The position numbers and the translations under genes are program-made. A model generated the notes under the pieces. It had not been told where the DNA came from and searched no databases. It was given only the letters and a program-made list of their open reading frames with translations. A stretch of 64,000 bases of DNA from Dictyostelium discoideum (taxonomy: Eukaryota), in assembly GCA_000004695.1 (NCBI GenBank), contig CM000151.3, forward strand, positions 192,001 through 256,000, read 5' to 3'. Below, one piece after another: positions 1,220 to 22,984 of this stretch; within the stretch, counting starts at the first letter, position 1, and every line of letters starts with the position of its first letter.

Positions 1220-4196
<2,977 letters not shown>

Positions 4197-4707
4197 TTTC
4201 TTTTTTTTTTTTTTTATTCAATAAATAAAAAACTATCTTTTTAGAATTAAACCTTAAAAAAAAAAAAAAAAGAAAAATAGAAAATTAAATAATAAAAAAA
4301 AAATAAAAATAGAAAATGGAAAAATAAAATAAAAATAAAAAAATAAAAAATATATAAAAATATAAAAATATAAAAATAAAAAAATAAAAAATAGTGATGG
4401 ATTTTTTAAGTTGGGAAAAAAAAAAAAAAAAAGTAAATTATTGAGAGGTTTTTTTTTATTTTTAAAAAAACAGGTTAAAAAATCCGAGTAAAATATCTCA
4501 TTTTTTTGAATTTTCACACAAAAAAAAAAAGATCTTTGCAGAATGGAATCACTTTTTTTTTTTTTTTTACCAAAATTTCAGAATTGTTATTTTTTTTTAT
4601 TTTTATTTTTTTATTTTTATATTTTTAAATTTTTAAATTTTCATTTTATATTTTTATTTTTAATTTTATTTTAGTATTATATTTTAAAATATTAATAACT
4701 TTTAAAA
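4197..4707. promoter_or_regulatory. Shared bidirectional promoter region between the two divergent ABCA genes
   Basis: The two start codons lie 511 bp apart on opposite strands. The spacer is A/T-rich, with an oligo(A) run at 4509-4520 and oligo(T) runs at 4553-4570. Confidence 0.4.
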
Positions 4708-5668
4708 TGAAATATAATGCAAACACCTCTAACCAATTTAGGGCTATGGTAAATTTTTTTTTTTTTTTTTATTTTTTTTTTATTTTTTTTTTTTTTTAAA
4801 ACTAACTTATTTATTATTATTATTTATTTATTTATTTAATAGTTTTTTAAAAATGCAACATTTTTAAAAAGACAAAAATGTTCTTTAGGTGTTCAAATTG
4901 CTATTCCAATGGCATTAGTAATTGTTTTAGTTATTCTTAAACTTTGGATTGAAAGTCAAATTGAAAACAATAGTGGTCCAGTAGGTGATAGTAGTGGTGA
5001 TGATATTATGGGTTCATATATTAGTTATAAATTTGATTATATGCAAGGTTGGTTTTATACTATAAATCCAAATAATATAACTAATATTGGTTATAAAGAT
5101 GGTTATGGAAATGGAACAGGTTTGTTGGGAGGTATTAATCAATATGAAATATATTGGAATGGTAGTGATCTTTGGGTACCATATACAGTTGCAGTAGAAT
5201 CAGGTCAAAAAATGAATGATATGGTTTTAGCTCAAAAACAACAACTTGGTCAAAGTTCAATGGGTCCACTTACATTCCCAATTGCAGGTATTCAATTCAA
5301 CGAATTCAACCCACAAAATAATTTAATTGATCTTACAATAACATGTGAACAACAAATTAGATATGCCTATAACAATTTTGAAAATAATTTAATTTATGTT
5401 TTATCTCAAATTCAAACATCATTCATTAATTACCTTTTAAATGGAAATGGAGTTGTAGTTAAAACTCAAATTAGCACGTTACCATATATTTATAAAAGTC
5501 AACAATTTGATATTGCTTCACTTTTAGGTGGTTCATTCTTTCCATTTGCTCTATCTTTTGTTTTACCATTATTTATGTATTCAATTGTTTATGAAAAACA
5601 AGAAAAATTAAGAGATTTATCATTAATGGTAATTTATTTATTTATTTAAAAAAGATAAATATACATAA

Positions 5669-5710
<42 letters not shown>

Positions 5711-7668
5711 ATTTAGATGGGATTAAAAATGAGAAATTATTGGATTATGACATTTATTTTTAACTTTTTAACATATGTTGTAATTGTATCTGTTATAAGT
5801 TTAATTTGTTCAGCTGCAAAAGTATCATTATTTGTTAAAGGATCACCATTCGCTTTATTTTTATTATTATTTTTGTGGGGTTTATCAATGGTTTCATTTG
5901 CATTCTTTTTATCAACATTTTTTAAAAGAACTCGTGCCGCTTCAATTTTTGGTTACTTTTTTGTAATGGTTATGGTTAATTTAAATTCAACTTTATCACT
6001 CTTTAATACTTCAGTACCTGTATTTGTATGTATTAATTATAAATAATAATAATAATATTTAAAATTAAAATTAAAATTTTATAATAACATTTTTTTTATT
6101 TTATTATTTTTTTATAAAATAGTATTATTGGGTACCAATTTTAGCATTTAGTAGAGGTATTTCAACTTTATGTGGTTTATGTGGTAATGGATTATGTCCA
6201 CCATTATCACAATATACATGGGATTTTGAACTATCAAGAATTCTTTTTTGGTTATTCATTGATACAATTGTATATTTAACTTTAGCAGTTTATTTAGATA
6301 AAGTTTTACCTCGTGAATTTGGTGTACCAAGTCATCCATTATTTTTTATTAAAGATTTAAAGGAATTATTCTCAAAAAAAGGAAAGTATAGAAAATTACG
6401 TGATGGTGATGGAATTAATGAAAAAACAAAATTAATTAATGAATATACTATTGATGGTATTAATAATGATGATGATGATGATGGATTAATGGATGAAGAT
6501 GTAAAGAAAGAAAGGGATATGATTGTAAAAGGTGAATATAATCCAGAGGAAATGACATTAATAGTTCAAGGTTTAAGAAAACAATTTCCAGGTAGACCAA
6601 AACCAGCGTTAAGTAATCTTTATTTATCCGTTAAAAAAGGTGAAGTACTTGGTTACTTGGGTCCAAACGGTGCTGGTAAAACAACATCAATTAGTATTCT
6701 CACTGGTCTTTATACACCAACATCTGGTACTGCCCATATTGCAGGTTTAGATATTCGTTATGATATGGATAAAATTCATCAAGTAATTGGTGTAGTAATG
6801 CAATTCGATGTCTTATGGGAAGATCTCACCTGTGAAGAAACCATTCTTTATTATACTCGTCTAAAAGGTACACCAAAATCAATCGAATTTGAATCTACTC
6901 ATAATATTTTAAAAGAAGTTAATTTATTAGATGTTAAAGATAGATTTGTAAAAGAATTAAGTGGTGGTATGAAAAGAAGATTATCATTCGCTATCGCTAT
7001 GACTGGTGAATCTTCAATTATTTTCCTTGATGGTATGTATAATAAATTAATTAATTAATTTCAAAAATATATAAAAATAAACAATTACTAATACTAATAA
7101 AAATTTAATTAGAACCAACCACTGGACTATCAATTGAAACTAGAAAAGATTTATGGGGTACAATTAATGAATTAAAAAAGAATAGATCAATTATCCTTAC
7201 TACTCATTCTATGCAAGAGGTATTTATTTATATAACACACATATTAATTTTATTTAATCATAACATATAATTAATCTTATTTTTTTTTATTTATTTAAAT
7301 AGGCTGATATTTTAAGTGACCGTATTGCAATAGTTTCACAAGGTAAATTACAATGTATTGGTACTCAAACTCATTTAAAACAAAAGTTTGGTGATGGGTA
7401 TAGTGTTAGAATTGATATTCAAGAGGATTATCAAAATACTCATAATCCAACAGATTTAATTAAAAGTTTTTCGCCAAGCGCAACACTCTCTGAAACATTT
7501 AATGGAAGTTATGTTTATCGTTTACCAAAGGATTCAATCATTTCAGATCTTTACGAATATTTAGTTTTAAATAAAGAACAATATCATTTACAGGAATGGA
7601 GTTTAAGTCAAACAAGTTTAGAAGATGTTTTCCTTAAAATTTCTGCGAATGATGATACTGTAAATTAA
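4708..7668 (+). CDS. ABC transporter, ABCA subfamily, half-size (TMD-NBD); exons about 4708-4749, 4843-5633, 5717-6034, 6122-7041, 7113-7220, 7303-7668
   Basis: Exon 1 encodes MKYNANTSNQFRAM and ends at a gtaaat donor. Exon 2 encodes FFKNATFLKRQK plus TM1 and the extracellular domain, and the two exons join in phase. The LSLM|MGLKMRNYW junction is typical of ABCA proteins. The NBD carries Walker A GPNGAGKTTS, the signature LSGGMKRRLSFAIA, and Walker B FLDG|EPTTGL split by an intron. The C-terminus reads SLEDVFLKISANDDTVN, with the stop codon at 7666-7668. Confidence 0.85.
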
Positions 7669-7740
7669 AAAAAAAAATATTTAGAAAAAAAAAAATAAAA
7701 AAATAAAAAATAAAATAATGCATTATTATTTATTTAAAAT

Positions 7741-7759
7741 TTATAAAAATAATAAATAA

Positions 7760-7806
<47 letters not shown>
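7741..7806. repeat. (AAAT)n / (TAAA)n microsatellite
   Basis: About 16 tandem units, seen directly. Confidence 0.8.
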
Positions 7807-8126
7807 ATACATTTTGTTTAGTTTTTATTTTATTTTATTTTATTTGTAATTAAATTAAAAAGTAGTATCATCGTCATCATTATTATTATTATTATTATTA
7901 ACAATAACTTCTGATGGAGTATCTTCTATTTCTTGAATAATTGGATCAGGGTTTAATGATTGATCATTATTTTGTATTTCTGTTGTGGCTTCGTTATTAT
8001 CAGTTAAAATATCAGTGGTGGTTTCGTTATCATCTTTTAAAATATTGGTGATTTCATTTTCCTGCTTTTCTACGACTACTGGATCTGGTTGTACGATTTT
8101 ATCCTCATTCTCTAAAGATTGATCTT

Positions 8127-10858
<2,732 letters not shown>

Positions 10859-10937
10859 TATAATAAAACTTTATGGTGAAGTTTTTGAAGTTTTGACATT
10901 ATAAAAAAAAAAAATTATTAAAATTTGGACTTTCTTG

Positions 10938-10974
<37 letters not shown>

Positions 10975-11607
10975 CATTTTTTTTTATTTTTTTTTAGGTA
11001 GCACAAATTGATATAAAATATTAAAAAAATGATTGAAATCATTCTGTTTTTTTTTTTTTTTTTAATTTTCAAAATCTAAAATCTTATATTATTGGATTTT
11101 TTGTGATTTAAATTAGTTGGAAACCTATGGGTTTAATATAATATATATTCATATCTTTTTTTTTTTTTTTTTTTTTTTTGTATTAACCCACAAAAAAAAA
11201 AAATACAATTAAATGGTAGTGGAACACCCAAAAAAAAGTTAAAGATAAAGATAAAAATTTTGATCAGAAAAAAGTCTTTTTTTTTTTGCGAATTCCCTCA
11301 TTAAAATTAAAAAAAAAAAAAGAAAAATAAAAAAGAAAAAAAGAAAAATTATTCAGAAATTGTTATTTAATTTTTAAACAATAAAATAACTGTTTAAAAT
11401 TAGTTTTTTTATTGTTTTGGTTAAATAAATTGTTTTTTTAATGAAAAAAATTCAATAGTTGTAGGTTTTTGTTGCAGGGCAAAAAGAAAAAAATTAACAG
11501 CTAGAATATCAGATGATTTAGAAAATAGGATATTGGAGGTCAAATGTTCAAAGTCATAAGTTCAACAATTTGGTAAATCAAATTACAATATATTCTATCC
11601 AACATTG

Positions 11608-11650
<43 letters not shown>

Positions 11651-11788
11651 AAAACTTTTGTTGCAATTTATTTAAGAATAATAATTAAAAATAATTAAAT
11701 AAAAAATAAACTATTATACAATATATTCTTTAATTATAATTAATATCAAAATTAATACCACTCTTAATTTTTTTTTTTTAATCATTAT

Positions 11789-12700
11789 TTATTTTTTTCT
11801 CTTTATTACTGTTGTGAAATATGGATTATTAAAATTATTTATTTCTTGGATATGTTCATCATAATTATTTCTATCTCTTTTTTTAATTTTAATTTTAATT
11901 TTATTTTCTTTTAAATTCATATTATTTAATTTTTGTTGTTGTTGTTGTGTTGAAATATTATTTATTAAATTTTTAAATTCTTTTTCAAATTCACCTAATA
12001 AACTGAATGCATCAAATTCAAATATTAATGAGTATAATTGTAATTTAAAAATATTATTAAATATTAAATTAAATATGAATTTTAATTCGTTCGAATATTT
12101 GAAATTAATTTTATATTGTCTAATTGATGTTAATGGTGATGAAAATATATTAACAAATAAATATTGATTAATTGAAATATGTTCTTTATGTAATTCAACA
12201 CTACCCTTAATTTTTTTTGTTGAGTAAACAATAAAATCACTCTCACCATATAAATATAAATATTTAATTGATTTATTATTTAATAAATTTGAAAATGTAT
12301 TAATATTTAATAAACCCATACAATCAAATTTAATTCTTTCAATTGATGTATTTAATTCTGAAAATAATGGTTTGAAACAGTTTGAATATGATTCTATAAT
12401 TTCTTTTAATTTATTTGCAAAAATTAAAAGATCATCATCATCTTTAAAATAATCATAATAACGAGCATATGTTCCAAAATCAAATGGATAATGTTTAAAA
12501 TTTACTGATGATATTTTTAAATTCTTTAAAGATTTAATTGTAATCAATGAATTGATCATTTCATTTAATTCTGATTTCATATTTTTTGAAAAACCCACAT
12601 TTGCAAATTCTCTATAGAATCCATGAAATCCCATTTCTTCAGATATGTTTGATACTATTAAAAGTGAATTAATTGGTATTGTAATTGAATGTAGATTTTT
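11789..12700 (-). CDS. Unassigned family-1 paralog, copy 1, 5'-truncated (C-terminal roughly 300 aa intact; 281-aa ORF from a real ATG at 12634)
   Basis: MGFHGFYREF...KIKIKKRDRNNYDEHIQEINNFNNPYFTTVIKRKK is about 65% identical to copy 4. The upstream in-frame segment DFKNLHSITIPINSLLIVSNISEE follows directly after a stop, so the N-terminal half is missing. Confidence 0.55.
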   Translation of the reverse strand, partial: KNLHSITIPINSLLIVSNISEEMGFHGFYREFANVGFSKNMKSELNEMINSLITIKSLKNLKISSVNFKHYPFDFGTYARYYDYFKDDDDLLIFANKLKEIIESYSNCFKPLFSELNTSIERIKFDCMGLLNINTFSNLLNNKSIKYLYLYGESDFIVYSTKKIKGSVELHKEHISINQYLFVNIFSSPLTSIRQYKINFKYSNELKFIFNLIFNNIFKLQLYSLIFEFDAFSLLGEFEKEFKNLINNISTQQQQQKLNNMNLKENKIKIKIKKRDRNNYDEHIQEINNFNNPYFTTVIKRKK

Positions 12701-13109
12701 AAAATCTTAAAAATAAATAAAAAAAGTAAAAGGCCAGATATCTTAAAAATGATTAAAATGATTAAAAATTTTAAATAAATAATAAAAAATAAAAAACTTA
12801 ATATAATTAAAAACTTAAAAATTAATAAAAAAAAGTAAAATGATCAAAATCTTTAAAATTATAAAAAATATTAAAAATATAAAAATAAATAATAAAAATA
12901 AAATAATTAAAATAAAAATAATGACCCAAATGATTAAATTAGTTTTTTTGTCATTTTTTTAAAAATAAAAAAACTAAAACAAAAATTTCTTTTTTTTATT
13001 TTTTTCTTTTTTTTATTTTTTATAATTTTTTTTTTGGTCTGAAGAGCAAATAAAACGAATAAAAAAATTAATTTCTCTTTTTTATTTTTTTTTAGTGTTG
13101 GTGTGGATT

Positions 13110-13660
13110 ATTAATATTAATTAATTCTTGAAAATATCCATCATAATTTGTTTTAATTTTAATTTTAATTTTAATTTTAATTTTAATTTTAATTTTAATT
13201 TCTTTTAAATTTATGTTATTTGATTGTTGTTGATGTATTGAAATATTATTAATTAAATATTTAAATTCTTTTACAAATTCACTGATTAATTCGTATGCAT
13301 TGAATTCAAATATTAATGAATTTAATTGTAATTTAAAAAATTTTATTTAATATTTAATTAAATATGAATTTGAATTGTTTTGATTCTACAAAATTAATTT
13401 TATAATGTCTAATTGATGATAATGGTGATGAAAATATATTTTCAAATAAATATTGATTAATTGAAATAGGCTCTTGATGTAATCCCATATTATTTCCAAT
13501 TTTTATTGATGAGTAAACAATGAAATCACTTTGATATAAATATAAATATTTAATTGATTTATTATTTAATAAATTTGAAAATGTATTAATATATAATAAA
13601 CCCATACAATCAAACTCAATTCTTTCAATTGATGTATTTAAGTTTGTAGAAAAATTATTT
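13110..13660 (-). pseudogene. Family-1 paralog, copy 2, fragmented remnant
   Basis: An 83-aa ORF (MGLLYINTFSNLLNNKSIKYLYLY...SIRHYKINF) is homologous to the middle of copies 1 and 4. Flanking homologous segments lie in other frames. The (ttttaa)n run at 13140-13200 corresponds to the KIKIKIK region of the family. Confidence 0.5.
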
Positions 13661-13821
13661 TTCTAAAATATAATTTCAAACAACAACAATGAAAATTAAT
13701 TTTTTTTTTTTTAAAATTTTAAATATAAAGTTTAATTAAAAAAATTTTCTATTATAATAACAATAATAAAATATAAAAAATATATTAAGACATAAAGCCT
13801 ATTTTCTTTTCTTTCTTTGTC

Positions 13822-13880
<59 letters not shown>

Positions 13881-14159
13881 TTAATCCTTAAAAACTAAAA
13901 TTGATTTATTATCATTTTATATTATTGTAAAAATAAATGAATCCATGGAAGCAAAGTGAAAAATTTGAAATTCAAGATATGTTCCTTAAAAACAAAATCA
14001 AAAGGAATTGATAATATAGCTAATGAATTGCTACCAAAATTAATTAGATCTAATTAAATTAGTATAATTTAATTAATTTTATACTAATTAAAATACACTG
14101 TATATTTAATTTTATACAGTGTGTTTTAGTGTAAAAATTCACTCCACCCTTATACCATA

Positions 14160-14760
14160 TAAAAAAAATATATATATTATTGAACTTAATTCTGAAAATA
14201 ATGTTTTAAAACAGTTTGGAAAGTATTCGGTAATTTCATTTAATTTGTTTGCAAAAATTACAAGATTATCATCATCTTAAAAATAATCATAATAACGAGC
14301 ATATGTTCCATACTCGAATGGATAATGTTTAAAATTTACTGATGATATTTTTAAATTCTTTAAAGATTTAGTTGTAATGAATAAATTGATCATTTCATTT
14401 AATTCTGATTTCATATTTTTTGAAAAACCTGAATCTGCAAATCTTCTATAGAATCCGATTTCTTCAGATATGTTTGATAATATTAAAAGTGAATTAATTG
14501 GTATTGTAACTGAATGTAAATTTTCAGATTAACTTTGACTATATGAAGTGGTTCAACAAACTCTTCATTACCATGAGTTTGACTTAAAACTTTAATCGAT
14601 TCAACTTGTTGACCTGAATTATGTGGATCATATAATGATGAATAATTGACATGTAATTGAGAGATCTCACCATCATCATCTTCATTAGACCCATCATAAT
14701 TTAAATTTTTACCTTTTAAAATTTGAATATCTTTACTGTTTCTCTATCTTCAAATAATGT
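14160..14760 (-). pseudogene. Family-1 paralog, copy 3, decayed, with in-frame stops
   Basis: The minus-strand translation gives ...RETVKIFKF*KGKNLNYDGSNEDDDGEISQLHVNYSSLYDPHNSGQQVESIKVLSQTHGNEEFVEPLHIVKVN... and ...DDDNLVIFANKLNEITEYFPNCFKTLFSEL, interrupted by stops and frame changes. Confidence 0.5.
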
Positions 14761-15143
14761 ACCTCCAATAAAACCAGAAATTATTTTTTTTTTTTTTTTA
14801 TCAAAACTCTTCAAATAAAAAAAAAATGTATATAAAAAATATAACTAATAATTTACATTTATTTTTAGGATCAAATATAATTTAGTTTCTATTTTATTTT
14901 GTTTTATTTTTTTTTATTTTTTATATTTTATTTCTTTTTTTTTATTTTTTTAGTTTATATTAAATTTAAAAACCAAAATATATTTTTATTTTAAATTTAA
15001 TATTCTTATCTAAAAAAAATAAAAAAAAAAAAACAATAAAATAAAATAGAAACTAAAATATATTTGATCCTAAATCTAAAATAATAAAATTTTATTAATT
15101 AAATTTTATTATTTGTTTTTTTTTTAATTCAATAAACCGATAT

Positions 15144-15179
<36 letters not shown>

Positions 15180-15385
15180 CATATTAATCAACAAATATTG
15201 AAAAATAGTATTGAGTTTTTTCAATTAAATTGTAGAATTTATTATGTGTGACTAAAATTAGGGTTGAAAATTATCTGCCCTATATTAATGTGTTAAAAAA
15301 AATTTCTATTTATATCTTTTTTTTTTTTTTTTATTTTTATTTTTTTTTTTTTTTTTTCACTATTTATTTTTTTCTCTAATAATTA

Positions 15386-17360
15386 TTATTTTTCTATTTT
15401 CTTTATTATTGTTGTGAAATGTGGATTATTAATATTGTTTAATTCTTGAATATTTTCATCATAATTAATTTTATTTTCAGTTTGTTTAATTTTAATTTTA
15501 ATTTTAATTTCTTTTAAATTTAAGTCATTTGATTTTTGTTGTAGTAGTTGTTGTATTGAAATATTATTTATTAAATTTTTAAATTCTTTAGCAAATTCAC
15601 CAATTAATTCATTTTTATTGAATTCAAATATTAATGAATATAATTGTAATTTAAAAATATTATTAAATATTAAATTAAATATTAATTTTAATTCATTAGA
15701 TCCTTTGAATTTTATTTTATAATGTCTAATTGATGTTAATGGTGATGTAAATATATATTCAAATAAATATTGATTAATTGTAATAGGTTCTTGATTTAAT
15801 CCCATACTACGACTAACTAGTTTTGGACAGTAAACAATGAAATCACTATCACCATGTAAATATAAATATTTAATTGATTTATTATTTAATAAATTTGAAA
15901 ATGTATTGATATTTAATAAATCCATACAATCAAATTCAATTCTTTCAATTGATGTATTTAATTCTGAAAATAATGGTTTGAATGAATTTGATAAGTATTC
16001 TATAATTTCTATTACTCTTTTAGCAAAAATTACTATATCATTAAAAGAATATTGCCTATATGCAAAAAAACCCATATAATCTAATGGATAGTGTTCATAA
16101 GTTACTGATGATATTTTTAAATTCTTTAAAGATTTACTTGTAATGAATGAATTGGTCATTTGAAATACTTCTGATTTTGTGTTTCTCAAAAAACCTGAAT
16201 AGGAATTTACATTATAGAATCCTTTAAATCCCATTTCTTCAGATATGTTTGATAATATTAAAAGTGAGTTAATTGTTACCGTAATTGAATGTAAATTTTC
16301 AAATTGATAGACTTTAATTAAATGGAGTGGTTCAACAAAATCTTCCTCATTAATTTCATAAGTTTTACTTTGTACTTTAATAGATTCAACTTGTTGGCCT
16401 GAATTATTTGGATCAAATAATGCTGAATAATTAACACGTGATTGAGAGCAATCATCTTTGGACCCGTCAAAAAATATATTTTTACCTTTGAAAATTTTGA
16501 ATATCTTTACTGTTCCTTTATCATAATACTCCCAATATAACCATCAATTGATAAATTATTAAAATATAATTCAGTACATCTCTTATCAGTACCATCATCC
16601 TCATCATCATCTTCCTGTTCAGAATCTGGACTATAACCTTCAGGCAACCAAAAGTCATAATTTAATTCTAGTATTTTAAATAAATTTGATATGATTTCCC
16701 AATTTTCATTTGATATATATTCATGTATTGTAAATAAAATACTATCATCTGAAAACCCTTCAATATTACCAATATTACCAGTTTCACCATTAACTACAAT
16801 TCTATAATAAAGTAATTGATTTTTTTCAAATTTGTTTTTAATTTCTTTAAAATCATCAACTGTAATATTATCTAAAAATAAATTGAATTTAAAATAATCA
16901 TTGATTATTGATTCTTTGATTTTTATAATTGAAAACTCTTTATTAAAACTAATTTTATTTTGTTTTTCATTTTTATTTTTAAAAACTATTTTATTTTTGT
17001 CATATTGATTTTGATTATTATAATTTTCAATAAATGATTTATTATTATTATCATTATTAATTTTTAACCAATGTTCAAATAATTTATTATTTATAATATT
17101 ATTTGATATTGTTAATGAAATAAAATTATACCACTTTTTTGAAACTAATATATAATTTAATATTTCATTTCTATTTAAATAAAATTTATTAATATTATAT
17201 TGATTAATAGGATTGTTATTATTATTATTGTTTTTATTATTATTATTATTTGTTTTATTTTTTTTGCTGGTTAATAAATAATTGATTATAGATCAAAATC
17301 AATAATATCTTGAAACATTTTATTATTATTATCTGTTTTAATTTTTTTATTTGTTGACAT
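15386..17360 (-). CDS. Family-1 paralog, copy 4, the longest copy; it carries at least two frame disruptions, so it may itself be a pseudogene
   Basis: A continuous ORF runs from about 16540 to 15386 (YYDKGTVKIFKIFKGKNIFFDGSKDD...MGFKGFYNVNSYSGF...KKIEK*). The N-terminal block SIINYLLTSKKNKTNNNNN...[66 protein letters not shown] lies in another frame, with a net +1 indel near 16530 relative to copy 3. An MSTNKKIKTDNNNKMFQDIIDFDL start exon at 17360 is again out of frame with the body near 17290. Confidence 0.5.
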
Positions 17361-17699
17361 TATTATTTGTTTAAATTATAAAGAGTGAGTCTGACCAATG
17401 AGTTTAAATCTTTTTTTTTTTTTTTATTCTTTTACCCCAAATTCTATTAAAAAAAAAAAAATTTATTTTGGCAAAAAAAAAAAAAAAAAAAAAAAAAAGT
17501 TGACAAAAAATGAAATTAGAATAAAAAACAAAATTAGCAGAAAAAAAAAAAATGTTTAAAAAACTTTTTTTTCTTTTTTTATTTCCAATCAACAAATATT
17601 GAAAAAATAGTACCCAATAGTAGCATTTATTTTCTGTGACTTACAAAAAAATGTGGGTTGAATGTCCCACATTTTTTTAAAAAAAGAAAAAATAAAAAG

Positions 17700-17815
17700 A
17701 AAATAAAAAGAAAAGAAAAGAAAAGAAAAGAAAAGAAAAGAAAAGAAAAGAAAAGAAAAGAAAAGAAAAGAAAAGAAAAGAAAAGAAAAGAAAAGAAAAC
17801 AAAAGAAAAGAAAAG
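17700..17815. repeat. (GAAAA)n microsatellite, about 22 units
   Basis: Seen directly; one unit near 17790 is changed to GAAAAC. Confidence 0.9.
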
Positions 17816-18374
17816 AAAAGAAAAAAAATAATAATAAAAAAACTTTGTAAGTCTGACTTAATGAGAATATTTTATTTTTTTTATTTTTTTTATTTTATCA
17901 AGACTCTTTTAATAAAAAAAAAAAATTTCTCTAATGACAAAAAAAAAAAGAAATAAATAAATAATTATATATATAACATTTATAAAGGGGGCATTGGTCA
18001 TTTTTTTTTTTTTTTATTTTTTTTTTTTTTATTTTTTTTCCATCCAAAAAAAAAAAAAAAAAAAATAAAAAAAAACAAATTTTCAAAAAAAGATTTTTTA
18101 AAATATTTCTGGATTTCAAATCTATTTTTTTTCTATTTTCACAATTATAAAAAAAAAAAAAAATCATTCCAATTACATTCTTAAAATTAATAATTTTATT
18201 AAAATATTTGTTTTTTTGATTTTTAAATATTTCTTGATTTCAAATCTATTTTTTTTCTATTTTAATAAGTATAAAAACTTTAAATTTTTTTTTTTTTTTA
18301 TTATCAAATAATTAAAAACTAAAACAAAAACCTTAAACTAATATTATATATAATATTTTAACATTAATTGAAAA

Positions 18375-18411
18375 ATGCCTCTCGCTTTAACCTCAAGGTA
18401 AATAATATTGA

Positions 18412-18442
<31 letters not shown>

Positions 18443-19283
18443 TATAATTAATTTATTTTTTATCTATAGAAAATCATTAAAAGATAATGAAGAATCTTTA
18501 AAAACCAATTTAGCATCAATTGAAAAATCATTAGGCGAAGCATTTTCAATTGAATTTGATTTTGAAGATATTATTACCAAATGTAATGATTCATGGGTAA
18601 CTAATAGTTGTGGAAGTATCTTTTATAAAGATGTTGTTGGTAATCTTGCTAAGAATATGGTAAAAGTTGGTGCAGACCCATTAATTAAAGAAGCATTTTT
18701 AGCAGCTGTCCCAAATAAGAAATTCGTTTTTATTTGTGCTGATGAAAAGTTGGAATCATATTGGAAATATCAATTTGTGAATGGTGATTGTCAAATTTTA
18801 TTCCGTCCAAAGATTTGCAACACCAATGATGTAAACACATTCAAATTGGAAACAATAATTCCAACCCAAGGTGTGTATACTTTAATGACCCGTTTGAATA
18901 TTAAAACAAATGAACAAAAAATGAAGGATAATTTATCCGCTGTTAAAAAAGCATTAAAATCATCATCGGATTGGTCAATTGATGAATCATCATTAGAAAC
19001 TGTTTATCCAAAAGTTGCCGACGACTTGAAGAATAGTTTTGGTCACATCTTTGCTGGTATTGTTGAAAAGGTAGCTGCTAATCTCGCAAAACGTTGTGCT
19101 GATGAAATGATTTTGGAAGCAGTCCAAGAAGCAACTACAAATCATACAATCGTTATTAAACATGATGCAAACTTGAATGGTTATTGGTCATGGTCATTTG
19201 AATCTGGTAATATCGTTATCACTTTCAAATCTGTAACTAATACTAACGATGTTCAAACATTTGATTTCATTAAATTATTATAA
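18375..19283 (+). CDS. Hypothetical protein of about 299 aa built from two internal repeats of about 120 aa; 2 exons (18375-18397, 18470-19283)
   Basis: Exon 1 encodes MPLALTSR and ends at ag|gtaaat. The acceptor is tatag at 18469. The two halves align with each other, for example ...FVNGDCQILFRPKICNTNDVNTFKLE versus ...FESGNIVITFKSVTNTNDVQTFDFIKL. The gene ends at TAA 19281-19283. Confidence 0.6.
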
Positions 19284-19412
19284 TCCAATAATTAATAAAT
19301 AAAAATAATAATCAATTAAATTAAATTAAATTTATAAATAAAAAAATAAAGTTATAAATAATATATTTATTTTATTTTTATTTTATTTTATTTTTTTTAT
19401 TTTATACTTTAA

Positions 19413-19670
19413 AATGATCATAAGTTATTTTTTCTCTTGTTTTAACTTTATATCTTTTAAAACAAGGTGTCATTTGTTTTCTCCATTTTAATTGATATAA
19501 TATTTTTAAATTTATTTCCCAATCTTCTGGTTGTTTAAACCAATAATCAACCCGGTCATCTTGTCTATTTGGAGATTGTTCTAAATAATATTTTTGAGAA
19601 TTTGGTGAATCTTTTGTTATATCAATATTACCAATTACTTGATATTGATTTTGTTGTTGATGATTATAGT

Positions 19671-19736
<66 letters not shown>

Positions 19737-19835
19737 CTTGTTTATAATAATTATCATTAAAACTATGAAAACTATTATCACCATTATTACTATTATTAAT
19801 TTTACAGATATTGTTACAAAATTCTGTTAAAACTG

Positions 19836-19914
<79 letters not shown>

Positions 19915-20054
19915 GTTATTATTTTTATTTTGATATATATGTTTTTATTATTTTTATTTTTATCTTTTTTTATTATGTTTATAGAATCAAGAAATTTATT
20001 TATTTTTGACCATGTATCGTTTTGATAATTATATTCCGGATATTTCATCTTCAT
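19413..20054 (-). CDS. Q/N-rich hypothetical protein with a conserved-looking C-terminal block; the reading frame through the (AAT)n tract is uncertain
   Basis: The minus-strand ORF reads ...NFCNNICKINNSNNGDNSFHSFNDNYYKQEQ(Q)22YYNHQQQNQYQVIGNIDITKDSPNSQKYYLEQSPNRQDDRVDYWFKQPEDWEINLKILYQLKWRKQMTPCFKRYKVKTREKITYDHFKV*. The N-terminal exon MKMKYPEYNYQNDTWSKINKFLDSINIIKKDKNK starts at 20054. Confidence 0.4.
19668..19733. repeat. (GTT)22 on the plus strand, equal to (CAA)n on the minus strand, encoding poly-Gln
   Basis: Seen directly. Confidence 0.85.
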
Positions 20055-21014
20055 TTTTTTTTTTTTTTTTTTTTAAACAAAAATTTATAAAATAAAAAAA
20101 ATAATTATTTATTGGGGGGTTTTTTTTTTTAAACAAATAAATAAATAAATAAGTAAATAAATAATTATTGCAACTATTATTATTATTATTATTTTTAAAA
20201 ATATTAATATTTTTAATAATGAAACATTAAAATATTATTAATATTTTTTTTTTAAAAGAAAAAAAAAAAAAAATAATAAAATAAAATAAGAAAAAAAAAA
20301 AAAAAATGTTTATTTATAAATAAAAAAAAGAAAAAAGAAAAAAAGAAAAAAAATTAAAATAAATAATATTTTTAATGTGTTAATTTTATTGATAATAATA
20401 ATAATAATTATTATTATTATTTATTTGAAATTAATTTGAACAAACAACAAGAACCACAATGGATAATTAAATAGTTGAATGATTTTGGTAATATAAAAAA
20501 AAAATAAAACAAGTTAAAAAATAATAATAATAAAATTAAATTAAATTATAAAATTAATAATATATTAATTAAAATGGTATTAAAAAAGAAAAAAGAAAAA
20601 AGAAAAAAATCAATATACGTGTACTTAAAAAAAAATAAAAAAAAAAAAAAAAATAAAAAAAAAAAAAAAACACTAACCAACTCTATTATAATAACCCCAC
20701 ACTTTTATTTAAAATAAAAAATAATAATAATAATAATAAAAATAATAATAAATATCATTTAACCTACAATGGTTAATTTTTATAAAAATAATAATAAAAC
20801 AATTATACTATATGGTATGATCTAAAAAGAATAAAGAGAGAGAAAGAAAATTGTGTCAGAGAGTGGGGTAAAATAAAAAAAAAAAAAAAAAAAAAAAAAA
20901 CAAAACAAATACAAAAGGAAAAGGAAAAAAATCATTTTATTATTATGATAATAATCAAAATTTAAATTTAGAAATATGATAAAACATATTTATCCTAATA
21001 CATTAACACACACC

Positions 21015-21047
<33 letters not shown>

Positions 21048-21176
21048 ACCCTTGATTATTTCCCAGTATGATATAATTGATTTTTAATTTTTTTTTTATT
21101 CACCTTTTTTATTTTTATTTTTTTTTTTTTTTTTATTCATTTTTTTAATTTCCCAAAATTTTGGATTTTTAATTTT

Positions 21177-21220
<44 letters not shown>

Positions 21221-21282
21221 CGGTTATTAAAAATCATATATTACCACACACACAAGCCCCCCTACTACCACACTCATATATA

Positions 21283-21312
<30 letters not shown>

Positions 21313-21313
<1 letters not shown>

Positions 21314-21408
21314 TGAAAATTGACTACAGATGCAGTAACCCAATTAAAACCACCAAACCCATTGATTATTCTGTATATAAAAATAAAAAGTTATCATCAA
21401 TAAACGTG

Positions 21409-21448
<40 letters not shown>

Positions 21449-21582
21449 TAAATACAAATACAAATACAAGTGTAAATAATAATATAAAAATACAAAGAAT
21501 AAATAGATCAGATGAACAATTTAGACAAATTTGTAAGTTTCATATTAATAATTATGGTGTTGAAATCAATGGTGATAAATAA
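21313..21582 (+). CDS. Small N-rich ORF, 89 aa, doubtful
   Basis: The ORF opens at ATG 21313-21315 and sits downstream of a C-rich promoter-like island at 21241-21275. I see no homology. Confidence 0.2.
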
Positions 21583-21821
21583 TAAAAATGACTATAAATG
21601 AATGAGCCAGCCTTTTAATTCAAGGTCTGATAATCGTTAATACATCATAAAAACAAACAATAAAATAAAATAAAAAAAAAATAAAAAAAAAACAATTTAA
21701 TATTTTTTATTATTATTATAATAATCATCAAAAAAAAAAAAAATTAAAAAAAGATATTAACATTTTAAAAAAAAAAAAAATTAAATTAAAAACATAATGA
21801 AAAAAATATGGAATAATAGTC

Positions 21822-22686
21822 ATGAAAATTGGTGTTGTTTCACAGGGATCAGGTTCATCTTATGTAGAAATGGAAAATACAAAAGTTTTATGTACAATGT
21901 AAATATCCATCAAATCATCAATCAATTATCATAATTATAAATAATTTTCAAGATTTATTAATTTTTATCATTTTTATCATTTTTTGAAAAAAACAAAAAA
22001 CACTAAAAATTCTCTTTTCTACAATTATTATAATCGATCATTATTCAAAAAAAAAAAAAAAAAAAAATTTATTATAATAATAAAATTAATTATTTAATTA
22101 ATTATTTAGACATGGACCACGTGCAACACAAAAGACAGAATTATTTGAAACAGCTAAATTAAATTGTGAATTAAAGTATACAACATTTTCAAGTACAACG
22201 GAAAAGATTGATTATGTGGAGAATAGTAAAGAAAAAGATTTAAGTTTATTGATAAGTCAATCGATAATCGGGTCTATCAGGTTGGAGAAATATCCAAAGA
22301 CCGCTATCGACATTTACATATTGGTATTGAATGATGATGGTAACGTGTTGGTGGCATCTATCACTGCTGCAACTATGGCATTGGCAGACGCAGGTGTGGA
22401 AATGTTTGATATGGTTTCATCATGTTCGGTATCCTGTACAAAAGATAACAGAACATTAATTGATCCTACCACTCTCGAAGAAACCATACCAAGCTCATCA
22501 ACTGTTTTAGTCGCAAAAATGCCATCACTAAATGAAATCACTCAAATCATTCAAACTGGTGAATTACAATATACAAATGTTTTAGAATGTGTTGATCTTT
22601 GTATTGATGGTTGTGATAAAATTTATTCAATTATGAAACAAAATTTAATAGATTCATTATTACAAAAACAACAACAACAAAAATAA
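21822..22686 (+). CDS. Exosome complex component RRP46/EXOSC5-like (RNase PH fold); 2 exons (21822-21898, 22110-22686)
   Basis: Exon 1 reads MKIGVVSQGSGSSYVEMENTKVLCT and ends at a gtaaat donor. Exon 2 continues IHGPRATQKTELFE. LVLNDDGNVLVASITAATMALADAGVEMFDMVSSCSVSCTKDNRTLIDPTTLEE aligns with [56 protein letters not shown] of human EXOSC5. Confidence 0.75.
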
Positions 22687-22984
22687 ATTAATAAAAAAAA
22701 TTTAAATTCAAATTTTAATTTTTAGCCGTTGTTTTTTTTTTTTTTTTATTTTTTTTTTGTTTTATTTTTTATTTTATTTTTTTTGGACAATTAGTTCGAA
22801 CATTTTTTTTTTTTTTTTTTTATTACCTTCATCGCTGTTATATATAAAAAAAAAAAAAAAAAAAATTTACAAATAACCACCCCCACCAACTTCCACCCCA
22901 CTACCACCACCACCAGCACTCAATAATAATAATTTTTTAAATATAATTAAATAAATAAATAAATAAAAAAAAAAAAAAAAAGAA

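Follow-up and report, generated by a model that had tools for sequence, protein, structure and literature searches.

A decaying head-to-tail array of three units of a candidate F-box/LRR family in Dictyostelium discoideum

What is the tandem array of related sequences on the minus strand of Dictyostelium discoideum contig CM000151.3 (GenBank assembly GCA_000004695.1), and does any part of it still encode a working member of its family? The array occupies positions 11789 to 17360 of the 64,000-nucleotide stretch analysed here (positions 192,001 to 256,000 of the contig, hereafter the window), and a first-pass annotation made from the letters alone described it as four copies of an unassigned gene family in different states of decay. 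We find three head-to-tail units, not four, because a 544-bp insertion has parted the two halves of a single unit that had been counted as separate copies, and we hold it to be probable that the array is a decaying satellite of an intronless F-box/leucine-rich-repeat (LRR) family specific to group-4 Dictyostelium, with every unit disabled in the AX4/AX2 laboratory lineage. The units are most likely pseudogenes, since without an F-box none of them can dock to Skp1.

A tblastn search of the whole window with the frame-repaired protein of copy 4 (659 aa) confined family sequence to 11789-17360, on the minus strand throughout, in four matches numbered here as in the first-pass annotation:

17360-15389, minus strand, copy 4, amino acids 1-659, spread over three frames
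14734-14175, minus strand, copy 3, amino acids 287-473
13647-13101, minus strand, copy 2, amino acids 467-649
12703-11807, minus strand, copy 1, amino acids 355-653

The window has a G+C content of about 20% and its open reading frames (ORFs) contain many asparagine runs. Comparing the region with itself by blastn gave clean diagonals, so the repeats are real, and the identities between copies (76-89% over 350-960 nt, E down to 0) far exceed chance even at 17% GC:

copy 1 and copy 4, 83% over 957 nt
copy 1 and copy 2, 83% over 577 nt
copy 1 and copy 3, 89% over 348 nt
copy 2 and copy 4, 81% over 678 nt, about 100 nt of 3' flank included
copy 3 and copy 4, 76% over 622 nt

The homology and common strand first described for these copies therefore stand, while the count of four gives way to three units with the following parts:

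15386..17360, minus strand, unit 1 (copy 4), a full-length family gene of 659 codons once its frame is repaired
14186..14782, minus strand, 5' half of unit 2 (copy 3), family amino acids ~287-473, 5' end truncated
13642..14185, unstranded, the 544-bp insertion splitting unit 2, with TTAA on both sides
12978..13641, minus strand, 3' half of unit 2 (copy 2), family amino acids ~467-649 plus ~100 nt of homologous 3' flank
11789..12703, minus strand, unit 3 (copy 1), family amino acids ~355-653, with an open frame that includes a 281-aa ORF at 11789-12634

Lesions were called by aligning the copies with five intact family genes from other loci. Read at the DNA level, each of these five paralogs is a single uninterrupted ORF of 641-671 codons without introns; the sequence blocks first noticed as shared among the copies are conserved motifs of this family. 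The intact ORFs stay open over ~650 codons though a composition-based estimate places a stop about every ten codons. An F-box motif spans about 40-48 amino acids, forms three helices and lies near the N-terminus of its protein. No unit of the array has an intact ORF that includes this module, as a functional F-box member would, and as adaptors of the SCF (Skp1-cullin-F-box) ubiquitin ligase all three are dead, since none encodes a protein with an intact F-box. Homology to paralogs, lesions or truncation, retained flanking homology and head-to-tail order are all present, as in unprocessed tandem pseudogenes.

Unit 3 has no promoter, no F-box and none of the N-terminal 354 codons; from its abrupt start at ~12703 the frame runs open as far as the stop codon, which agrees with the earlier description of a copy without its N-terminal part that keeps an intact 281-aa ORF. 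Could such 3' remnants, meaning this ORF and the 282-aa ORF within a 381-codon frame of unit 1, be expressed as functional LRR proteins lacking an F-box, for example as decoys that bind substrates without delivering them to SCF? Compared with P0004, an intact gene of a wild isolate, unit 3 carries 67 substitutions in 909 nt, four indels that are all multiples of three, and a ratio of nonsynonymous to synonymous substitution rates (dN/dS) of 0.58, which is below that of most paralog pairs. Its frame is open over 305 codons, and in simulated neutral decay it stayed open in ~4% of trials at 33 substitutions, giving a probability of ~0.04 if half of the 67 differences from P0004 were neutral. The ORF is also annotated as a gene in a second assembly, GCA_054883475.1. 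From the open frame, the in-frame indels and the dN/dS ratio, unit 3 either was truncated recently or remains under constraint, and recent truncation accounts for the open frame equally well. Moreover, a deletion has removed the family promoter from in front of unit 3, the 374-bp spacer that separates it from unit 2 shows no homology to family 5' flanks (nor has this spacer a second copy in the window or in comparison loci L001 and L003-L006, where matches were of low complexity only), and the remnant ORFs begin at an internal methionine that is simply conserved in the family (SEEMGF). We therefore regard functional remnants as quite unlikely and favour disabled units.

Unit 1 corresponds to the annotated AX4 gene DDB_G0271392, the best match to repaired copy 4 (97% identity over 89% of the query), whose exons translate exactly from the window, so that the window is AX4 chromosome 2 or nearly identical to it. 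The first-pass annotation had seen its frame disrupted in at least two places, and against the intact paralogs there are exactly two breaks. The first, within F-box helix 1, is the loss between 17294 and 17293 of 10 nt that all five intact paralogs have; the second is a net frame change at ~16529, in a linker that differs in length from one intact gene to another solely by multiples of three. The 282-aa ORF that unit 1 keeps (15386-16234) lies in the 381-codon open frame. With just two lesions, unit 1 looks recently disabled. Its relevant parts, with the introns of the public gene model, are:

17113..17315, minus strand, F-box-like region: helix 1 (FQDIIDF..SIINYLL) from 17315, an Asn-rich loop, then helices 2-3
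17113-17169, minus strand, F-box helices 2-3 (NEILNYILVSKKWYNFISL)
17145..17644, minus strand, annotated intron 1 (500 nt), which skips the family start codon (17360-17358) and F-box helices 1-2
16486..16529, minus strand, annotated intron 2 (44 nt), which covers the second break and drops the conserved coding block ETVKIFKIFK

The F-boxes of paralogs are parsed identically to the region of unit 1 in a published alignment (Boland et al., 2022, J Biol Chem; PMC9485057, Fig. S3). The 580-aa model of DDB_G0271392 starts instead at an upstream ATG (17672-17670), and both of its introns are conserved coding sequence in all five intact paralogs. We observe that this ATG sits in a small hairpin-like palindrome (17651-17672: ATGTGGG-ACATTCAA-CCCACAT) with GTAAGT directly after it, and the start region looks like a chance ATG and splice donor chosen by a gene predictor. 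The introns of the AX4 annotation are a prediction outcome, not transcript evidence, and the model is best read, on the alignments, as a gene-prediction artefact in which an ORF was forced through two frameshifts.

It could be argued that DDB_G0271392 is a functional spliced gene of 580 aa in which the two frame changes are true introns: the model exists in public annotation, GT..AG borders flank both proposed introns and an AX2-like assembly has a similar 584-aa model. We give this argument very little credence. Both introns are conserved coding DNA in genes that are themselves intronless, the 10-nt deletion and the linker indel suffice to account for the frame changes, and intron 2 is merely 44 nt long and would delete the ETVKIFKIFK block. 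Intron 1 would remove the start codon and F-box helices 1-2, leaving a product without the most conserved module of the family, and DDB_G0271392 is absent from the Skp1 interactor figure (PMC9485057, Fig. S3) that names seven of its paralogs. The first-pass claim that the frame changes of copy 4 are mutational and not splicing is thus strengthened, since five intronless single-ORF paralogs are firmer ground than the comparison with copy 3 on which it had been based. Programmed frameshifting at unit 1 was also considered and dropped as unsupported, the intact paralogs reading straight through both sites. DDB_G0271392 is almost certainly a pseudogene.

Numerous lesions mark unit 2 as an old pseudogene. 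It has lost its 5' ~860 bp, corresponding to the N-terminal 286 codons; in its 5' half, one nucleotide is missing near 14725 and four near 14536, and a 1-nt insertion gives rise to a TAA stop (14277-14279); the stops and frameshifts of its 3' half include a TAA at 13354 and the loss of 4 nt near 13111. The disruption first noted in copy 3 is thus real and extends to copy 2, which had been taken for a separate fragment and is the 3' half of the same unit. In the multiple alignment, the end of copy 3 (14186) and the start of copy 2 (13641) map to a single point in the other copies (12352/12355 in copy 1, 15958/15961 in copy 4); copy 3 ends ...TTTTCAGAATTAA, copy 2 starts ...CTTAAATACATC, and TTAA stands at both edges. 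Because the ends meet at the same homologous position with TTAA on both sides, we read the two as one interrupted unit. If copies 2 and 3 had instead arisen separately, as two of four independent partial duplicates, their different similarity to copy 1 (83% and 89%) and their best matches to different units of a sister lineage would follow, but gene conversion within arrays also predicts such mosaic similarity, and it would remain a coincidence that two duplicates share a strand, stand in the correct 5'-to-3' order and abut at the same homologous nucleotide with TTAA common to both, beside a syntenic sister array of three units. We find a four-copy origin scarcely credible and retain three units. 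The insertion itself holds an A run of ~60 nt on the minus strand (~13830-13890). Terminal inverted repeats were not seen in it, there is no tRNA gene nearby, and no second copy occurs in the window or in loci L001 and L003-L006, where matches were of low complexity only. The insertion could be a piece of a transposon; the missing terminal repeats and tRNA gene leave neither a TRE-type nor a piggyBac-like origin demonstrated.

That the frame breaks are errors of the reference, as extreme A+T content and many homopolymers might favour, is a negligible prospect, since a 10-nt deletion is atypical of homopolymer error and an independent Nanopore and Illumina assembly (GCA_054883475.1, locus L002) is identical over the unit 1 coding sequence. 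This assembly, which we judge to be the AX2-214 genome of PMC12745789 given its near-identity to the window, is colinear with it over 6.1 kb and differs by 8 substitutions and 4 gaps, all within intergenic A/T (homopolymer) tracts. As the unit 1 coding sequence shows zero differences, the frame breaks are genuine.

To what family, then, do these units belong? The designation as an unassigned gene family did not survive, as seven AX4 paralogs are already catalogued as Skp1-interacting candidate F-box/LRR proteins (PMC9485057, Fig. S3) and the family has a predicted LRR solenoid. An exhaustive profile search of 1.84 billion representative proteins returned 58 hits at E <= 0.001, and the ten of these that we looked up all come from group-4 Dictyostelium (discoideum, cf. 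discoideum, citrinum, dimigraforme, firmibasis and purpureum), to which the family appears, on present sequences, to be restricted. The looked-up relatives are named "hypothetical" or "uncharacterized", apart from one D. purpureum protein with the UniRef name SAP domain-containing. By our count, annotated AX4 members number 13, ten from a protein search and three more in PMC9485057; about 40 of the 86 matches of that protein search bear the locus-tag prefix of a single wild isolate, ACTFIW.

Our own sequence tests make an F-box suggestive, not proven. Pfam found no domain above threshold in the window ORFs or in 50 family members. Below the curated cut-off, an F-box hit in unit 1 (E = 0.14) coincides in position with F-box or F-box-like hits in 4+2 of the 50 members (best E = 0.025), and these N-terminal hits recur at NEILNYILVSKKWYNF. 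In the family alignment a second conserved helix, DFEILKSIINYLL, is set apart by an Asn-rich loop of 20-35 residues; a consensus without this loop scored 17.5 bits with Pfam F-box-like against a cut-off of 24.3, and a D. purpureum relative scored 19.3 bits, again below cut-off. Aligning the de-looped family by hhalign with eight F-boxes gave a probability of 50.6% and P = 1.6e-4, with helices 1-3 matched as expected. The isolated N-terminal 125 residues gave an AlphaFold2 (AF2) confidence score (pLDDT) of 48.8, too poor for a fold search, and neither the full-length alignment nor the de-looped N-terminus, searched as profiles against PDB sequences, found a meaningful relative; matches to soybean agglutinin and LAGLIDADG proteins in these searches were at chance level and were dismissed.

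A protein-interaction domain lies C-terminal to the F-box. The AlphaFold2 model of intact P0004, built from a 50-sequence alignment, has a predicted TM-score (pTM) of 0.68 and forms a confident solenoid of alternating strands and helices over residues ~163-670, so that the C-terminal domain of the family is predicted to be an LRR solenoid. Because there is no significant LRR profile match, this assignment is one of predicted fold: with E <= 1, Pfam reported no LRR family in the window ORFs, nor does one appear in its listing for the 50 members, and a distant member supplies the sole sequence trace of LRRs, a faint match to LRR_At5g56370 (E = 0.094).

The published Skp1 interactome speaks to both domains. 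Fig. S3 of PMC9485057 aligns the predicted F-boxes of Skp1 interactors with the same split parse, a loop between helices 1 and 2, and lists DDB_G0271408, DDB_G0271404, DDB_G0347826, DDB_G0271202, DDB_G0271228, DDB_G0271418 and DDB_G0271434, five of the seven with an "LRR+" substrate-receptor domain. Six of them (DDB_G0271408, DDB_G0271202, DDB_G0271228, DDB_G0271418, DDB_G0271434 and DDB_G0347826) were recovered by Skp1 co-immunoprecipitation and mass spectrometry (co-IP/MS) from vegetative and/or slug cells (classes v, s, u), some recoveries being enhanced by the Skp1 prolyl hydroxylase PhyA, and DDB_G0271404 appears with a predicted F-box (class p). Neither the family gene IDs nor a tandem family were found in the main text of that paper, and six of the IDs, present in the supplementary figure, were not found in main texts of the literature. 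What emerges is a family of candidate FBXL-like SCF substrate receptors that has been catalogued but carries no name, and we infer ubiquitin-ligase targeting as its role.

How did the array come to its present state? The locus keeps its neighbours across lineages: on one flank lie RNase PH, the calreticulin family and Mon2, on the opposite flank a Dor1/COG8-like gene and ABCA transporters. In the sister lineage, cf. discoideum isolate ACTFIY, the interval bounded by RNase PH and ABCA carries three full-length head-to-tail units, two of them intact (710 and 658 aa) and a third with at least three frameshifts, together with an inverted partial copy. In D. discoideum ACTFIW the intact 670-aa gene P0004 lies at the position of truncated unit 3, and the unit at the position of copy 4 is broken at different sites, into models of 390 and 248 aa. 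From these comparisons a three-unit array appears ancestral, with different units having decayed independently in different lineages. A one-to-one orthology between the window units and the three units of the sister lineage was tried and rejected, as best matches are mosaic, a pattern expected from gene conversion or unequal crossing-over. We also observe that flanking genes are 94-97% identical to those of ACTFIW and family units only 81-89% (window 3963-22687 compared with L001/L005); on these figures, the family region changes, by divergence or by replacement, more quickly than the sequence around it. The earlier description of a birth-and-death tandem array in different decay states accords with the lesions, the truncations and the independent decay across lineages.

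In the history that we propose, an ancestral three-unit array of SCF substrate-receptor candidates, parts of which are still intact elsewhere, would have decayed unit by unit. Unit 1 would have been disabled by the 10-nt deletion in F-box helix 1 and the linker frameshift; unit 2 would have lost its 5' ~860 bp, been split by the 544-bp insertion and gathered several stops and frameshifts; and unit 3 would have lost its promoter, its F-box and its first ~355 codons, the rest remaining an open frame. Several points weigh against this history and against the loss of function of the three units that it implies. Unit 1 has just two lesions, with 381 codons open past the second; the 305-codon open frame of unit 3 is improbable under long neutral decay (P ~0.04); and truncated products of the three units may be expressed. 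All of our own F-box sequence tests fall below curated thresholds and the N-terminal region is modelled at pLDDT < 50. The orthology of window units to sister-lineage units is mosaic and not one-to-one, and pairwise Nei-Gojobori (NG86) dN/dS ratios among the five intact genes, at 0.66-1.13, are crude estimates, the method being rough in an 80% A+T genome.

Other features of the locus bear on the extent of the duplicated unit and on its surroundings:

17565..17612, minus strand, upstream (promoter-region) motif of unit 1, ~50 nt, from the blastn self-comparison
15160..15210, minus strand, second occurrence of this motif, upstream of truncated unit 2 and read as a remnant of its 5' flank
14858..15080, unstranded, palindrome of 223 bp, with arms of 65 nt (14858-14922 and 15016-15080) that are 88% complementary and a spacer of 93 nt

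Since the upstream motif recurs before unit 2, the duplicated unit probably included the 5' flank. The stretch 17361-17584 is homologous to sequence upstream of P0004 (L001:298-495), and the 3' flanks of units are homologous to each other (12978-13078 with 15295-15390). The palindrome lies in the spacer between units 1 and 2, beside the 5' truncation point of unit 2, and no further copy of it was found in the window or in L001 and L003-L006, where matches were of low complexity only. Directly upstream of unit 1, an (AAAAG)n microsatellite of ~30 units (17681-17830) produces spurious KEKKR-repeat ORFs on both strands. A 291-aa ORF that adjoins the array at 18408-19283 on the plus strand is built of two halves that are homologous to each other and both end in ...TNDV.TF...; Pfam gives it no match, and it is conserved at 94.5% nucleotide identity and corresponds to a 278-aa gene model in other strains. 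Rfam found no RNA family anywhere in the window.

Some 70 kb from the array, on the same contig, is the main cluster of the family, in which at least five head-to-tail members follow one another at intervals of 2.3-3.3 kb and a stray C-terminal fragment is also present. Fragmentation and mis-annotation seem general in this family. In the main cluster a C-terminal fragment (amino acids 523-657, L003:8626-9009) is fused into a 771-aa gene model, and in cf. discoideum an inverted C-terminal half (L004:5745-6668) is called a 279-aa gene. In the protein-search list (P0002, P0003 and P0085), some wild-isolate models of 1013-1071 aa are two adjacent family genes fused, and one of 896 aa joins a family C-terminus to a PF04931-domain protein; these fused models look like further annotation artefacts in the new assemblies.

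Within the family, conservation peaks in the F-box region: column entropy reaches its minimum in the F-box helices and repeat cores and its maximum in some ten patches of LRR loops, as a conserved docking module joined to a diversifying recognition surface would be expected to show. The restricted range, the copy-number variation, the intronless arrays, the dN/dS ratios of ~0.7-1.1 and the pairing of a conserved F-box with hypervariable LRR loops would together suit a strain-hypervariable repertoire of SCF receptors used in conflict, directed at proteins of bacterial pathogens, endosymbionts or rival strains. We think this unlikely, and offer it as a conjecture; were it true, remnants that lack the F-box, the 281-aa ORF of unit 3 among them, could have been kept as decoys and the array would display the lineage-specific turnover of the repertoire.

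That a tandem array should decay in a fast-evolving F-box family is to be expected, and the present case adds little beyond an annotation correction and a pointer to a little-studied, strain-variable family. The correction concerns the DDB_G0271392 model and its two neighbouring family remnants, which are unannotated or called a short gene. The pointer ties anonymous "hypothetical proteins" to a published Skp1 interactome and an LRR fold, and hence to a testable biochemical role, and the locus-specific differences between intact and broken copies suggest the family as a subject for work on how ubiquitin-ligase adaptors turn over rapidly in a social amoeba.

The closest known counterparts of the array are the Skp1-interacting paralogs (PMC9485057), which belong to the same family, lie on the same chromosome arm, are 60-67% identical in amino acids to repaired unit 1, and share the N-terminal arrangement of QDIIDFEILKSIINYL, an N-rich loop and NEILNYILVSKKWYNF as well as the LRR-like C-terminal domain. 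Those paralogs are intact, and six of them have been seen as proteins in co-IPs, whereas the three window units are frameshifted or truncated and have no usable F-box. Compared with FBXL-type proteins (Skp2, FBXL2, FBXL3 and FBXL17, and plant TIR1/COI1), the family has no detectable relationship at the sequence level: its F-box is broken between helices 1 and 2 by the 20-35-residue Asn-rich loop, ~90 poorly modelled residues separate F-box and LRR, and the best structural matches of the family model are NLRP and ribonuclease-inhibitor-type LRRs, not FBXL proteins. The tgr family of the same species (PMC12745789), from whose sequencing project the strain assemblies compared here appear to stem, resembles the array in its clustering, frequent duplication, partial fragments and pseudogenes; tgr genes, however, encode cell-surface adhesion and allorecognition proteins of Ig fold, whereas the window family is predicted to encode cytosolic F-box/LRR proteins and nothing ties it to allorecognition. 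The F-box expansions of nematodes (wild isolates of C. elegans, PMC8120010) and plants (PMC3030570) differ from it in their substrate domains, which are FBA, FTH or Kelch where the Dictyostelium family has LRRs, and share with it lineage-specific tandem clusters, many pseudogenes and fragments, high dN/dS and differences in copy number among isolates.

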